Below are positions 76 to 7,194 of a stretch of 9,131 bases of DNA, one piece after another; the first letter of the stretch is position 1, and the number at the start of each line of letters is the position of its first letter. Below the pieces are notes generated by a model, which searched no databases, was not told the origin of the DNA, and saw nothing but the letters and a program-made list of their open reading frames with translations. Source of the DNA: Escherichia coli (GTDB lineage Bacteria > Pseudomonadota > Gammaproteobacteria > Enterobacterales > Enterobacteriaceae); NCBI RefSeq assembly GCF_003334785.1, contig NZ_QOWV01000034.1. One strand, written 5' to 3'. The position numbers and the translations under genes were made by a program.

Positions 76-100
76 TGAACCGCCCCGGGAATCCTGGAGA
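76..100. repeat. Left terminal inverted repeat (IRL) of the IS element
   Basis: 25-bp sequence starting TGAAC, matching the reverse complement of 1361-1385 at 23/25 positions. Confidence 0.8.
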
Positions 101-129: not shown

Positions 130-456
130 ATGACTAAAAATACTCGTTTTTCCCCCGAAGTCCGTCAACGGGCAGTCCGTATGGTTCTGGAAAGTCAGAG
201 CGAATATGACTCACAATGGGCGACAATTTGTTCCATTGCTCCAAAGATTGGCTGTACGCCGGAGACTCTGCGTGTCTGGGTTCGCCAGCATGAGCGGGAT
301 ACCGGGGGCGGTGATGGTGGGCTCACCAGCGCTGAACGTCAGCGTCTGAAAGAGCTGGAACGTGAAAATCGTGAACTGCGCCGCAGTAACGATATCCTTC
401 GCCAGGCTTCCGCTTATTTTGCGAAGGCGGAGTTCGACCGCCTCTGGAAAAAATGA
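130..456 (+). CDS. IS3-family transposase OrfA (helix-turn-helix DNA-binding subunit with leucine-zipper-like C-terminus)
   Basis: 108-aa ORF. N-terminal HTH-like segment ([13 protein letters not shown]...[14 protein letters not shown]) and C-terminal heptad-like segment ([27 protein letters not shown]), as in IS3-family OrfA. Ends at the A6 slippery tract. Confidence 0.85.
448..456 (+). other. Candidate programmed -1 ribosomal frameshift / translational coupling site (A6 tract, AAAAAATGA) joining orfA and orfB
   Basis: A6 run at 448-453 directly before the overlapping ATGA. IS3-family elements commonly make an OrfAB fusion by -1 frameshifting on A-rich slippery sites. No downstream structure was evaluated. 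Confidence 0.4.
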
Positions 457-1343
457 TGCCACTGCTGGATAAGCTGCGTGAGCAGTACGGGGTCGGACCG
501 CTATGCAGCGAACTGCATATTGCCCCGTCAACGTATTACCACTGTCAGCAACAGCGACATCATCCGGATAAACGCAGTGCCCGTGCGCAGCGCGATGACT
601 GGCTGAAGAAAGAGATACAGCGCGTATACGATGAAAATCACAAGGTATACGGTGTGCGTAAAGTCTGGCGTCAGTTGTTACGGGAAGGTATCAGAGTGGC
701 CAGATGCACTGTGGCACGTCTCATGGCGGTTATGGGACTTGCCGGTGTTCTCCGGGGTAAAAAGGTCCGTACGACCATCAGCCGGAAAGCCGTTGCCGCA
801 GGCGACCGCGTAAACCGTCAGTTCGTGGCAGAACGACCTGACCAGCTGTGGGTGGCTGATTTTACTTACGTCAGCACATGGCAGGGCTTCGTCTATGTGG
901 CGTTTATCATTGATGTGTTTGCCGGATACATCGTGGGGTGGCGGGTCTCATCGTCTATGGAAACGACATTCGTGCTGGATGCGCTGGAGCAGGCGTTGTG
1001 GGCCCGTCGTCCGTCTGGCACCATCCATCACAGCGATAAAGGCTCTCAGTATGTGTCACTGGCCTATACGGAGCGACTAAAAGAAGCCGGATTACTGGCA
1101 TCAACAGGGAGTACAGGCGACTCGTATGACAACGCGATGGCGGAGAGCATCAATGGTCTTTACAAAGCGGAGGTAATACACCGTAAGAGCTGGAAAAACC
1201 GTGCAGAAGTGGAACTGGCCACACTAACGTGGGTGGACTGGTATAACAATCGACGATTGCTGGGAAGGCTGGGCCATACTCCTCCGGCAGAAGCAGAAAA
1301 AGCTTATTATGCTTCCATCGGAAACGATGATCTGGCAGCCTGA
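453..1343 (+). CDS. IS3-family transposase OrfB (DDE catalytic/integrase-core subunit)
   Basis: 296-aa ORF in the -1 frame relative to orfA. Candidate DDE residues in [16 protein letters not shown] and [13 protein letters not shown] (RNase-H-like transposase core). ATG at 453-455 overlaps orfA stop TGA at 454-456. Confidence 0.85.
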
Positions 1344-1360
1344 GTTCACAGATAAAACAC

Positions 1361-1385
1361 TCTCCAGGAAACCCGGGGCGGTTCA
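1361..1385. repeat. Right terminal inverted repeat (IRR) of the IS element
   Basis: Reverse complement TGAACCGCCCCGGGTTTCCTGGAGA pairs with 76-100; located 18 bp after the orfB stop codon (1341-1343). Confidence 0.8.
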
Positions 1386-2634: not shown

Positions 2635-3360
2635 TTATGATGTACATAATACCTTAAAATTATCAACTAGCTGAGCATTAACCTCCATCTGACTAATCCC
2701 CCATAATGCGGCTAACTGTTTCTCTGCAATCCCACTATCCCATGGCATTAGTGGGTCATTACGAAACTTAGCAAATGGCCCATCTGTTTCTGTAAGAATG
2801 CGTGATTTGGGTATTTTCAAAACTAAGGCCTTACCCTTTATTGTATCGAGCATAGCAGGCCCCACTGAGAACCAGCATCCTAAATCAATTGCCCTTTCAA
2901 GCTGCTTAGGTGTTCCAGTGAACCAATGCAATATTGCCACCCCATCGATATTTTCAATCTCATCAAGCACCGCTGATGCACTTCCCCGACTATGGATAGT
3001 CATAATCTTGCCACCAGCCCGATTTACACTGTTGAGAATGTGTCGGAACACTTTCAATTGAATATCCCAATGTTCTTTAAATCCCTGTCCACCATCAAGC
3101 CCTATTTCCCCTACATACTTAGTTTCCGAAAGCAATGAATCAAACAGGTCTAACTCATGCGATCTTTGATGCGCGATTTGAGGATGTAGCCCAAGAGCAG
3201 TTCGGATTCGTTGACTTTCTTTAGCCAATAAAGAAGTACCATGCCATGCTTTAGGTGTTGTTGTCACCGACAGAATATAAGTCCCTCGACGTTTACTTTC
3301 TTCAGCCACGAGGTCTGGCCGAGGATATAAGTCTAGATGACAGTGCATATCGATGCTCAT
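2635..3360 (-). CDS. qatD: TatD-family metal-dependent hydrolase/DNase, QatD of a Qat defence system
   Basis: 241-aa ORF beginning MSIDMHCHLDLY (the HxH metal-binding motif that opens TatD-family TIM-barrel hydrolases), with further conserved His/Asp/Glu positions. ATGA start/stop overlap with the upstream QueC-like gene at 3357-3360. Last gene of the operon. Confidence 0.85.
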   Translation of the reverse strand: MSIDMHCHLDLYPRPDLVAEESKRRGTYILSVTTTPKAWHGTSLLAKESQRIRTALGLHPQIAHQRSHELDLFDSLLSETKYVGEIGLDGGQGFKEHWDIQLKVFRHILNSVNRAGGKIMTIHSRGSASAVLDEIENIDGVAILHWFTGTPKQLERAIDLGCWFSVGPAMLDTIKGKALVLKIPKSRILTETDGPFAKFRNDPLMPWDSGIAEKQLAALWGISQMEVNAQLVDNFKVLCTS

Positions 3361-4676
3361 ACTATGTTCTCACTCAGTAAATAGCTTTCAACCTCATCTA
3401 GGCCATCCTTAAATACTTGCTTGAAATTATCAAATTCTGCCGTAGGCAAAGGGCCACTTTTGGCAATCCATGTACCTATTTTCAAAGTCGATTTCTGCGT
3501 GATCGCAATCCTAAGGGCGATCAGGTCGTCCCTGCGATCTATTTCATTCATTACTTTAGCTAAGGACTGGAAAATATATTCAACATCTCTACTAATTCCC
3601 CCTGCATGAAGTGATGCTCGTCGAATGATACACGGTATACATACCCCACATTGCTGCCCCATTCGTTTCCAATGACTGCAGGATACTGTACTTTCCACAA
3701 TTTTAGATAAGAGCTGCTTATTTGAACATTCGGAGATCATTTTTCCTTTTGTCTTAAACTGATATGGATTGATTATTTGACAAGAAATACCGAGCGCATC
3801 AAAGATCTTTTGTATGCTCGTAATAAAATGTGGATGTGTTGTTCGTGTGCTCAGCGAACCTATCCGCCGTGGAGTAAGTGGTGCATTTAATGAGATAAAT
3901 CCATTTTCAGGTACGAACAAATCAATCTTTTCTTGTTGAGATATCTCTTGTACGGCACAAGCACCTACGGCCGCAAGGGCAAGAAAATTGAGGCTACGAG
4001 TTCGCATCGTAATATCAGTCACGCCTTGATAAATGTGTGGGTCAGCATTAATCTCAAAGCGCGAAAATTGGCCACTTAATTTTTCAGCAATCTGATCTTG
4101 ACGAGACTTATCCCCTTTATAAGCATGACTAACCAAAAGTGGAGCGCGCCCTGCAGCCAGAAGATCTATTGCACCAATAGCTGAATCCAGACCTCCTGAA
4201 AATAAGCTGACACAGTCAAGCCCTTTTAGCTTAATCAGACGATGCCTTGAATGCTGGCTATAAGGCTCTGGCGGTGCATAACCATCGTCACAAAATTCGA
4301 AATCCCAGATGTCTCCACTAAGAAAATGCAAAGCACTCTCAAGTTCTTTCTTTAGACTAATCCATCTGGATGGTTCATGAAGGGGGAGTCGTAACGACAA
4401 TTGGCGGGTCCAACCATCCTCGGAACTTTCACGCTGAACGAAAGTATCTGCTGCAGTTACTGCTAATGCAACACTCAGAAAATCCATGACCTTAGCTGGA
4501 AGCTGTACTCCCAAACGTCTGATCCGATCAATCGCAGGATTCCCGATAACAGATATATCTCCGCGCCTCTGACCACTTAATCCATATAGCTGAACAGGTA
4601 ACACTTTCTCACTTGCTGGCGGCAAATGGTGATGTTTATGATGGAAAACTAATTGTGTCACTGGTATGCCTCCCAT
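3357..4676 (-). CDS. qatC: QueC-like PP-loop ATPase (7-cyano-7-deazaguanine synthase family) with an N-terminal extension, QatC
   Basis: 439-aa ORF. PP-loop motif SGGLDS at residues 160-165 (nt 4182-4199, minus strand). C-terminal cysteine cluster CSHWKRMGQQCGVCIPC resembling the QueC zinc site. Operon context with KAP NTPase and TatD. Confidence 0.8.
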   Translation of the reverse strand: MGGIPVTQLVFHHKHHHLPPASEKVLPVQLYGLSGQRRGDISVIGNPAIDRIRRLGVQLPAKVMDFLSVALAVTAADTFVQRESSEDGWTRQLSLRLPLHEPSRWISLKKELESALHFLSGDIWDFEFCDDGYAPPEPYSQHSRHRLIKLKGLDCVSLFSGGLDSAIGAIDLLAAGRAPLLVSHAYKGDKSRQDQIAEKLSGQFSRFEINADPHIYQGVTDITMRTRSLNFLALAAVGACAVQEISQQEKIDLFVPENGFISLNAPLTPRRIGSLSTRTTHPHFITSIQKIFDALGISCQIINPYQFKTKGKMISECSNKQLLSKIVESTVSCSHWKRMGQQCGVCIPCIIRRASLHAGGISRDVEYIFQSLAKVMNEIDRRDDLIALRIAITQKSTLKIGTWIAKSGPLPTAEFDNFKQVFKDGLDEVESYLLSENIV

Positions 4677-5410
4677 TCTTGCCAGGCCTCAATAATGGCC
4701 TGACGTTCAATTTTTACCATTTGGTTTCGTGTGAACGATCTTATGTTACCGGCAAGTTTTGGTGCCATATGTTTATCAACAACAACTTTAATCAATTCCC
4801 GGAGTTCAATTTCTGCATGAATTGCCTTTGAAGGTGTATCTGCTTTGTTCCATGCCCTATTAGAATCCATTACCATCTGAAGGAAAATACTTTCCGCTAG
4901 ATAACCAATCATTGTGTCAACAATCAAACCATCAGTTATTTTTTGAGGATCGAAAATTTCTACGCCATCAAGAGCCTCCACTAAAGCATGGTTCATGGCC
5001 GCACAGATCTTTTCTGAGTCACCATCCTGTGATGTTAAAGCTTGAGCAATAGTTGATATTGCTATTTCGCATGGAAGGCCTGCCAAACTGCCCAAATCGA
5101 TGCTTGGTTCTCCGGGAGCCGAAGGCATTCCCACTAAAGCCCCAAATAATTCGGCCCCAGCTTGCGTGACACTCCCTAATCGCCGAGCAGCGTTACTGCT
5201 CCCTCCGGAGGCTTTTCGCGCGTAGTGCCCTATGGCTTTTCTGAAATCTGCTCGATTTCCATTTGATACCGCATTTCCCAACGATTCTCGAAATGGCGCA
5301 AACCTCCTTTCTTGCGGCGAGGGTAACGGTTGCTGTGGCTGATCATCAGCCCATGGTGGAACCAGCGGAGAGCCACCTCCTGGACCTTTACTTGATTGTG
5401 ATGTTCCCAT
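4658..5410 (-). CDS. qatB: QatB, protein of unknown function (Gly/Pro/Ser-rich N-terminal ~100 aa followed by a helical domain)
   Basis: 250-aa ORF between the KAP NTPase and QueC-like genes. Start ATG shares one nucleotide with the qatA stop (TAATG at 5408-5412) and the 3' end overlaps the qatC start by 19 nt. Assignment is by operon position; no motif recognised. Confidence 0.6.
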   Translation of the reverse strand: MGTSQSSKGPGGGSPLVPPWADDQPQQPLPSPQERRFAPFRESLGNAVSNGNRADFRKAIGHYARKASGGSSNAARRLGSVTQAGAELFGALVGMPSAPGEPSIDLGSLAGLPCEIAISTIAQALTSQDGDSEKICAAMNHALVEALDGVEIFDPQKITDGLIVDTMIGYLAESIFLQMVMDSNRAWNKADTPSKAIHAEIELRELIKVVVDKHMAPKLAGNIRSFTRNQMVKIERQAIIEAWQEWEAYQ

Positions 5411-7194
5411 TAAGCGTCCTTATTCCATTGTTCATCTTTTAATGCTGCAGTCATCCACGCTGGTCGTTTCATCCCCAACTGTAATTCCTGTAGATAACGA
5501 ATTAATATGCTGGCTGCATCTGTTGAGTAGCGGGCCAACAGACATGCGCCGGAAAAGCCTCTGGGCTTACGATCCCAATCTGATACCTGCCGTAACTGGT
5601 TAATTAAACCTTCCATTACAGGTATTTGCTCCTCACGAGGAAGTGCTTTCAAAAGGTTTTCTGCTGTAGGAGAACTAGTGTTTTTCAATTCAATTAGTGC
5701 ATTTAGTACTTCCCGTCCAGATGGCGATAAACCAACCACATATGCACCTATTGGCATAGTTTCTCGGGACAGATATATGGCGGCCCTTAAGTCAATCCCA
5801 CCAAGACGAGGTTCAAGTTGGGCCCATTGACTGATGAAAGATTTAGTCGTTGGACTATCAGTCCATGTCTTTGGTGCATCAGTAGGTATTTGACCGCCAT
5901 TATCGTCAAGCTGTTTAAGTATCTGGGGAACACCTTGTTCAATATCCACGAGATGATATAAATCAGCGGTGCCATCCACTCCAACACAGCGTTCAAAAAT
6001 TACTAGCTTAGTAATAATTGCTTCATCCAAAGGCATTGCTCGTCGCTTCGCAATTTGAGATCGCATTTTCACAACATTCAACAAGCGTTTAACGATCCTG
6101 GGATTACCATGAATAATTGGAGAGTTGGCTAAAATGGGAGCAATACGGTCAGCACGCGCAAACGCCAGCGCGAGGTTGCTATCATCCGCTTCACCAGTCA
6201 TTTTTAAGGCCTCCTGACGTGAGATTGGTTCATCTTTCCAGGATTGCTGTAACGCCTTCTCTAAGCCCTCACGGAGCATAGTTATTTTTTCGCCTTCTAA
6301 GCCATGTTCAATGGCATAAAGCATGAACAGATACGAACGGATCTCACGGACCCCAGCCTTAGGCACCCGAATAGGAACCTGGATTAGCTTATCCAGATAA
6401 TCTATTTGATGGCGCTGTGATGCCCCTTTGAAGTAATCAGCCACAGAAGAGCGAATCATGTCCTCATCTGCTGCAATAATAAAGGCTGTATTAGTCAAGA
6501 AAAGGAATAGCCTGATAGCTTCAAGTGTATGGATAGCATTGGCAGGGAGACAGCGGTCTAGGTTATCTATTACCACAATGAGTGGCTTTCCAAGTTCTTC
6601 TAGAATTTCCCCATATTCCTTACGAAAGGCATCAATCTGCTGAGGGGGGCTTTTTTTTGTTTGTGGTTTAATCAAACCACAAGCAGTTTCTTTACCTTCT
6701 TTAGCTATATTGCCTAAAGCCTCATACTCTTCCTGGCTCTGGATGCCATCGGTGATATTTCTTAATGCACCAATCCCCCTAGAAAGCAAACCGCCAGTAG
6801 GTAATCCTGCCATTAAAGCTGTACCCTCAGCTAGTAATCCCATAGCTCTAAAACCATCAACTCGACTAAGGAGTCTCTTAGTTTTTGATATAAGGGTAGA
6901 ATTACCTTCAGCAGCTTTTGTCAATTCTGTAGCGATGACTTCAAGAAGTGCGGCACGGGCGTCGTCGTACCCCTGATAGAGCCAAGAGTCAAAATTGATA
7001 ACAATCCAATCTTTGTCGTCTTGCTCAAGTTTTTGCTCTATCAGTTTTAACAGAGAGGATTTACCTGCCCCCCAGTTTCCAAAAATTCCGATAGATACTG
7101 GTAACATATCTTTCGTGGTAAGTACATCCACGGCTAACTGAGATACTTCACCAAAATTTAGGTAGTCTTCTGATGACTCTTTGTCTGACCACAT
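5410..7194 (-). CDS. qatA: KAP-family P-loop NTPase, QatA
   Basis: 594-aa ORF. Walker A GNWGAGKSS at residues 39-47 (nt 7057-7080). Walker B-like PLIVVIDNLDRC, the hhhhDxLDR signature typical of KAP NTPases. AAGGAT RBS 6 nt upstream of ATG. First gene of the four-gene operon. Confidence 0.8.
   Translation of the reverse strand: MWSDKESSEDYLNFGEVSQLAVDVLTTKDMLPVSIGIFGNWGAGKSSLLKLIEQKLEQDDKDWIVINFDSWLYQGYDDARAALLEVIATELTKAAEGNSTLISKTKRLLSRVDGFRAMGLLAEGTALMAGLPTGGLLSRGIGALRNITDGIQSQEEYEALGNIAKEGKETACGLIKPQTKKSPPQQIDAFRKEYGEILEELGKPLIVVIDNLDRCLPANAIHTLEAIRLFLFLTNTAFIIAADEDMIRSSVADYFKGASQRHQIDYLDKLIQVPIRVPKAGVREIRSYLFMLYAIEHGLEGEKITMLREGLEKALQQSWKDEPISRQEALKMTGEADDSNLALAFARADRIAPILANSPIIHGNPRIVKRLLNVVKMRSQIAKRRAMPLDEAIITKLVIFERCVGVDGTADLYHLVDIEQGVPQILKQLDDNGGQIPTDAPKTWTDSPTTKSFISQWAQLEPRLGGIDLRAAIYLSRETMPIGAYVVGLSPSGREVLNALIELKNTSSPTAENLLKALPREEQIPVMEGLINQLRQVSDWDRKPRGFSGACLLARYSTDAASILIRYLQELQLGMKRPAWMTAALKDEQWNKDA

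Follow-up and report, generated by a model that had tools for sequence, protein, structure and literature searches.

In an insertion sequence whose two transposase frames overlap, where do ribosomes leave the first frame for the second? An element near one end of a 9,131-nucleotide stretch of Escherichia coli DNA (contig NZ_QOWV01000034.1), which we call the window, raises this question. A sequence-only reading drew attention to the junction of its orfA and orfB genes, where a run of six A residues (A6) meets overlapping stop and start codons, and proposed two routes to OrfB: −1 frameshifting on the A-run, which would give an OrfAB fusion, or independent initiation at the overlapping ATG.

The element and its orfA/orfB junction

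The insertion sequence occupies positions 76-1385 (1310 bp) and has the following parts.

76-100, plus strand: left terminal inverted repeat (IRL), TGAACCGCCCCGGGAATCCTGGAGA, which begins with TG and agrees with the reverse complement of 1361-1385 at 23 of 25 positions
130-456, plus strand: orfA, encoding the DNA-binding/regulatory OrfA (108 aa), which corresponds to the N-terminal part of the IS3 transposase in NCBIfam
453-1343, plus strand: orfB, encoding the catalytic domain (296 aa); this −1 frame is open from 390
1361-1385, plus strand: right terminal inverted repeat (IRR), which ends with CA

These features agree with those by which the IS3 family is recognized, namely a length of 1.2-1.5 kb, imperfect TG...CA repeats, overlapping ORFs in frames 0 and −1, a DDE triad with K or R seven residues past the E, and a match to the family profile. 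OrfB scores 317 bits against NCBIfam NF033516, for which the cut-off is 160, and the record of the fusion protein carries the Pfam rve and HTH domains. The names in NCBI point to a narrower group. The exact OrfA protein is present there, with one record called 'IS3 family IS3411 transposase ORF A', proteins that share 98-99% identity with OrfAB carry the name IS1203 family, and a copy at the same locus in E. coli TW10722 is named IS629 family.

At the nucleotide level, the element with short flanks matched 7010 E. coli records, of which 5818 are 95-99% identical. It is 98.0% identical to the same-locus copy in strain WS4437A-1 (26 differences in 1310 positions) and, when the query includes short flanks, 97.8% identical to a copy named IS1203 family. 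Under the ISfinder rule, isoforms share at least about 95% nucleotide identity with the reference. IS1203 and IS3411 are treated as isoforms of IS629 (PMC3271280). With these copies as proxies for the reference, the element, a member of the IS3 family, most probably belongs to the IS629/IS1203/IS3411 isoform group. The original description of an IS629-type element agrees both with the NF033516 score and with the NCBI names of nearly identical proteins.

The catalytic residues are D136, D195, E231 and K238 of OrfB (D244, D303, E339 and K346 of the fusion), encoded at 858-860, 1035-1037, 1143-1145 and 1164-1166, with spacings of 59 and 36 between the acidic residues. They are kept in 35-36 of 36 relatives, and the inverted repeats show no nucleotide difference from those of two other intact copies. 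With its inverted repeats, both ORFs and the D-D-E-K residues in place, the element looks intact and competent. The sequence-only reading had regarded the intact junction as a sign that the element is probably active, and had named disabling mutations in the junction or in the DDE residues as the observation that would speak against this. The junction carries no disabling change, and the DDE residues are intact as judged by the residues conserved among the 36 relatives. An intact junction is nevertheless weak evidence of activity, for which the whole intact element is a better argument.

Positions 448-456 of the window read AAAAAATGA and can be divided as follows.

448-453, plus strand: A-run of exactly six A, read as AAA AAA in orfA and as GAA AAA A in the −1 frame; located in the linker that separates the RNA stem-loops described below
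454-456, plus strand: TGA, the stop codon of orfA
453-458, plus strand: two in-frame ATG codons of orfB (453-455 and 456-458), which overlap the TGA and form a candidate termination-reinitiation site

The orfB frame is −1 relative to orfA, so that both the coordinates and the phase given earlier for an overlap at A6 and ATGA are borne out. However, the opening of the −1 frame at 390 creates a dual-frame region of 67 nt, which is larger than the 4-nt ATGA. The AAAAAATGA string by itself is statistically unremarkable. It occurs twice in the window (at 448 and 1448) against 0.28 expected occurrences, and two matches were reached by 10 of 200 shuffles, which is not significant. The window also has six A-runs of at least six bases. 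Therefore, the string can have meaning only through its position at the orfA stop. The second exact copy, at 1448-1456, lies exactly 1000 bases 3′ of the first, in a gene remnant upstream of a SLATT gene, and this spacing is probably a coincidence.

The U-run and the ALIL pseudoknot

The only Rfam family found in the window is the ALIL pseudoknot (RF01497). The match spans 411-527, covers the full model (1-117) and scores 120.2 bits, where the gathering score is 50. The region has three relevant features.

417-420, plus strand: U_UUU slippery tetramer, within TAT TTT GCG in the orfA frame and part of a 'TTTTG' motif (417-421); the putative main −1 site
426-442, plus strand: ALIL stem-loop 1 (SL1), GGCGG and CCGCC around an AGUUCGA loop, placed by the Rfam alignment; RNAfold energy −9.8 kcal/mol
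488-527, plus strand: ALIL stem-loop 2 (SL2), with the internal loop UCGGAC at 493-498; RNAfold energy −18.6 kcal/mol, z = −2.95

Bases 432-437 of the SL1 loop (GUUCGA) are complementary to the SL2 internal loop and would form a pseudoknot helix of six pairs. The spacer between U_UUU and SL1 is 5 nt and the gap between the stem-loops is 45 nt. These distances fall within the known range of ALIL elements, in which SL1 lies a few nucleotides 3′ of the slippery motif and SL2 lies 44-104 nt further 3′ (PMC5009743). Stimulation of −1 frameshifting by ALIL has been demonstrated for IS3411 (PMC5009743). Given this geometry, the shift site is expected 5′ of position 426, and the sole slippery motif there is U_UUU at 417-420. 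Among tetramers combined with a pseudoknot, U_UUU ranks above A_AAA (PMC4066793).

For the comparison with relatives, one scan of species-representative genomes yielded 80 loci whose OrfB proteins are 54-98% identical to that of the window. Besides Enterobacterales, they come from Nitrosomonas, Comamonas, Sphingomonadales and various metagenome bins. ALIL matched without gaps over 117 nt in all 40 of the diverse loci that were tested. Loci were stacked with the window in alignment A1, leaving out a second, reverse-strand match in locus L033 and a 114-nt match in locus L077. The conservation counts below refer to 40 aligned sequences, with OrfB 54-100% identical.

The structure is well conserved among these sequences. 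In SL1, 94.5% of the cells are paired, and in the helix between the loop and the internal loop the value is 98.8%, with compensatory changes at two of the six pairs. The named structure as a whole is 90.6% paired on alignment A1, compared with 32-42% in slid controls, and none of 500 shuffles of this alignment reached the observed pairing or covariation score. Relative to GCUCGA/UCGAGC, which is both the common form and the Rfam consensus, the GUUCGA/UCGGAC helix of the window has one compensatory pair (C-G to U-A) and one U-G pair in place of U-A.

The slippery motif is conserved as well. At the aligned position, 39 of 40 sequences have U_UUY in phase with orfA, including 12 full U_UUU_UUY heptamers, and 39 of 40 have a −1 frame that is open onward from this site. 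The OrfA peptide A-Y/F-F-A is itself conserved, which partly confounds the conservation of the U-run. This confounding is addressed by the Tyr codon preceding the run, whose third-position T is needed for re-pairing but is not read in the −1 frame, so that the choice of TAT over TAC serves as a synonymous test. The codon is TAT in 22 of 22 cases, against a background of 194 TAT to 273 TAC in the same elements. The naive probability of this outcome is about 10^-8.6, a value that is overstated because the sequences are related and were treated as independent.

NCBI annotates the same junction.

join(130..420,420..1343), plus strand: OrfAB transposase, 404 aa, with the upstream side of the junction reading ...ASAYF; exact match to WP_434059341.1

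This accession, recorded on a single contig of 9131 bases that is evidently the window, is the NCBI fusion protein for the contig and is joined at the U-run. All 120 related fusion proteins retrieved from NCBI/nr have an upstream junction of the U-run type, and NCBI annotates an ALIL feature and a 'programmed frameshift' on sister copies. The fusion expected from the A-run, with the junction LWKK-MMPLL, is absent from the NCBI protein collection. These junctions show the curated model and reflect annotation practice; they are not evidence of mechanism. Separately, 13 database fusions (P0019, P0039, P0057 and 10 others) read AYF-G-EGGVRPP at the junction. A simple −1 shift on TTTTGCGAAGG does not yield this peptide, which may result from a different annotation convention or a sequence variant.

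The arrangement has close counterparts among known systems. It is the same as in the ALIL region of IS3411, IS629 and IS1203 (RF01497; Mazauric et al. 2008), with the same two stem-loops, 6-bp pairing, 45-nt gap and position of the slip motif 5 nt 5′ of SL1. Nothing of substance differs, although this copy looks like a mosaic of sub-types. In IS3, orfA and orfB have an ATGA overlap; here, ATGA lies about 30 nt 3′ of the slip site, inside the structure. The element shares with IS3 its family, its ORF layout, and the combination of a tetramer slip site with a downstream pseudoknot (PMC4066793). However, the slip motif is U_UUU instead of A_AAG, and the H-type pseudoknot of IS3 is replaced by an ALIL pseudoknot that spans about 100 nt.

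From the motifs, their phase and spacing, their conservation and the covariation of the pseudoknot, all of which were observed, we infer both the frameshifting and its site. OrfAB is probably made by programmed −1 frameshifting at U_UUU 417-420 with the ALIL pseudoknot, and not at A6. In the proposed sequence of events, a ribosome with the Phe codon UUU (418-420) in its A site would meet SL1 5 nt downstream, the apical loop of SL1 being locked by the six pairs to the internal loop of SL2. The tRNA-Phe would then re-pair on 417-419, reading would go on in the orfB frame, and the product would be the 404-aa OrfAB. Ribosomes that do not shift would end OrfA at UGA 454-456. Some of them may re-initiate at the AUG at 453 or 456 and make OrfB alone, and a few may slip on the A-run, giving another fusion in which the OrfA tail is complete.

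An antisense ORF that spans the frameshift region (211-531, minus strand, 106 aa, TTG start) was also considered. It is open in only 11 of the 40 sequences and is most likely a chance ORF.

The start codons and the A-run at the orfA stop

The second of the routes proposed earlier, production of OrfB on its own, is compatible with frameshifting at the U-run. OrfB would be made by initiation or termination-reinitiation at the AUG that overlaps the orfA stop, and would act as a regulator and not as a transposase. Of the 40 sequences, 28 have an orfB-frame ATG that shares bases with the orfA stop (10 as ATGA, 18 as UGAUG or UAAUG), and 5 more have GTG or TTG there. IS3 uses ATGA coupling of a similar kind. 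In a passage that cites Chen and Hu, one article reports that OrfB of IS629 lowers the frequency of transposition (PMC5771124), which would suit such a role. On the other hand, 7 of the 40 relatives have no start codon at this place, among them close enterobacterial ones in which A6 is followed by TAG. Upstream of orfB, the Shine-Dalgarno match is reduced to a weak GGA at 446-448, the Met could be a mere residue of OrfAB, and OrfB alone would be without the DNA-binding N-terminus. The common start/stop overlap fits the earlier proposal, which the start-less relatives and the weak Shine-Dalgarno match weaken, and we give independent OrfB synthesis slightly less than an even chance.

The A-run is less widespread. 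A6 is found in 7 of the 40 sequences, with A5G in one more, and all of these are from Enterobacterales with OrfB 76-100% identical; elsewhere the position reads, for example, CCGAAGTGATG or CAAGAGTTAAT. The overlap of stop and start codons is therefore more widespread than the A-run. Conservation of A6 within its clade does not require slippage, since a change at any A would alter the protein in either orfA (WKK and stop) or the −1 frame (LEK). For the same reason, selection on A6 is not open to a synonymous-site test.

The surroundings of the A-run offer little that could stimulate a shift. It lies 6 nt 3′ of SL1, and no stimulatory structure was found directly 3′ of it with RNAfold (457-487; z = −0.3, with an unstructured centroid). 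SL2 starts 34 nt past the run, and in the folded model it is too distant to act on a ribosome at that point. The phase of the run is G_AAA_AAA followed by UGA, which does not give an X_XXZ_ZZN heptamer, and the fold 5-9 nt downstream that characterizes sites of the IS911/IS150/dnaX type is missing. GGAG at 429-432, which resembles a Shine-Dalgarno sequence, was also considered as an element that might promote A-run slippage from upstream. The optimal spacing of such stimulators is 10-14 nt, whereas here it is 15-17 nt, and these bases are explained by SL1; the candidate was rejected.

The sequence-only reading had presented A6 as the frameshift signal expected for the family, evidently on the model of IS911 and IS150. 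These elements belong to the same family and likewise make OrfAB transposase by a −1 shift. However, they use an A_AAA_AAG heptamer and a stem-loop, whereas the G_AAA_AAA of the window directly precedes a stop codon, is followed by no adjoining structure and is not kept across the group. The signal that is conserved is U_UUU 417-420 with ALIL, and the description of A6 as the expected signal cannot be upheld.

A lesser role for the A-run is easier to accommodate. A6 could be a minor, clade-specific second −1 site beside the U-run, and the additional OrfAB isoform would differ from the first at 11 residues. The phase is correct at both sites, each fusion would have 404 aa, and the A-run persists over the enterobacterial relatives named above. 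Its restriction to one clade, the want of a nearby stimulator and the double coding that already accounts for its conservation make this reading somewhat doubtful, if quite possible. Chen and Hu are said to have reported in 2006 that the TTTTG motif and the A-run motif of IS629 both act as −1 signals and yield two frameshift products. If this holds, the A-run is not inert.

Two related copies differ at the sites in question. In locus L024, a Martelella alba contig that is 80% identical, a C-to-T change creates a −1 frame TGA inside the SL1 loop (1183-1185 of that locus) but retains a U-G pair in the pseudoknot. Frameshifting at the U-run would be unproductive in this copy, and a fusion could come only from its A6 run; the copy is either dead or a natural test case. 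The intact copy in E. coli 20KM2762 (L001), which is 99.3% identical, has the change 453A>G and reads AAAAAGTGA. This change makes an A_AAG tetramer before the stop and replaces the first ATG by GTG; the copy also has five changes in or near SL2.

That A6 is the main −1 site is much harder to maintain. Under this explanation, the Lys-tRNA slips on AAA AAA before UGA and joins the proteins as ...LWKK-MMPLL.... In E. coli, A-runs read by tRNA-Lys are a classic kind of slippery sequence, and the adjoining stop codon could slow decoding. The run is kept throughout the enterobacterial clade, it would be the sole productive route in L024, and the IS629 result reportedly obtained in 2006 speaks for a functional A-run. 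In addition, A_AAA is measurably shifty when a stimulator is present (PMC4066793). However, A6 occurs in only 7 of 40 sequences, whereas the U-run occurs in virtually all (U_UUY in 39 of 40) and ALIL in all. The phase and the missing 3′ structure are unfavourable, double coding can explain the conservation, and the nearly identical L001 has G in place of the sixth A. NCBI lacks the corresponding protein, while all 120 annotated fusions use the other junction. We therefore regard A6 as a very improbable main site.

Known cases of transcriptional slippage involve at least about nine identical bases in a row. Slippage of RNA polymerase on A6, which would yield mRNAs with both frames fused and has precedents on A or T runs in some IS families (PMC5009743), is scarcely credible here, because six A are too few, most relatives lack the run and a dedicated ribosomal signal is present.

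With the U-run as the preferred shift site, the A6/ATGA sequence is best read as the terminator of orfA and a possible re-initiation site for OrfB, and as a second slip site it would be minor at most.

History, surroundings and significance of this copy

A target-site duplication of 3-4 bp was sought at the ends of the element and none was found (left flank CAG, right flank TAC). Such duplications occur at only 21 of 47 IS629 sites in O157:H7 (PMC3271280). The missing duplication speaks to the history of the copy, not to its family membership.

Both flanks are remnants. The left flank (1-75) derives from an IS30 element, and the right flank (1386-1500) contains the last ~115 nt of a gene for a nucleotide-binding-domain protein. 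In strain MFDS1001074 this gene is intact (1329 nt) and lies directly upstream of the SLATT gene; in the window, the SLATT-domain gene is at 1507-2082. With an IS30 remnant at one end and a truncated gene at the other, the copy sits at a rearrangement junction. A likely two-gene system, consisting of the nucleotide-binding-domain gene and the SLATT gene, has lost its first gene at the end of the element.

The copy itself looks recombinant between sub-types of IS629. It differs from the same-locus copy in WS4437A-1 at 26 positions, 24 of which cluster in 883-1264, inside orfB. Over the part compared, the TW10722 copy follows this pattern: counted from the right end, its first 12 mismatches fall at the same positions. 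At the protein level, differences from IS1203-type proteins occur only at or before residue 217, in the N-terminal half, while differences from the commonest type are mostly at or after residue 252, in the C-terminal half. The TW10722 copy (L002) is interrupted by a group II intron with ltrA at the equivalent of position ~870; the element in the window is uninterrupted.

Further downstream, the window contains a complete QatABCD anti-phage system (2635-7194, minus strand).

2635-3360, minus strand: QatD, above the NCBIfam cut-off
3357-4676, minus strand: QatC, above the NCBIfam cut-off
4658-5410, minus strand: QatB, below the NCBIfam cut-off
5410-7194, minus strand: QatA, below the NCBIfam cut-off

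A minus-strand gene for a hypothetical protein (7326-8447) contains a perfect 9-bp tandem repeat at 7414-7465, with 5.8 copies encoding (AEV)n. Its orthologue in MFDS1001074 has about 29 copies, which indicates a variable-number repeat.

Everything found here matches the described IS3411/IS629 system and is in this sense already known. One broader reading, which we consider rather unlikely, is that in enterobacterial ALIL elements A6-UGA-AUG is an added, second decision point in the linker of the pseudoknot, where ribosomes that miss the shift at the U-run would terminate, slip late or re-initiate. Transposition would then proceed at a rate determined by the ratio of three or four products. 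The two IS629 frameshift products were apparently published in 2006. If this reading is true, its new part would be only comparative: the late site is clade-specific, and the stop/start overlap is widespread.

In practice, the competence of an IS629-type element should be checked at the U-run (417-420 here), both ALIL stem-loops and the −1 frame from 420, and not at the ATGA alone. The main relevance of the finding lies in correct annotation, and the understanding of recoding in the IS3 family is unchanged. As a competent-looking copy, the element could still rearrange the defence island in which it resides, with its QatABCD system and its SLATT gene with a truncated partner.
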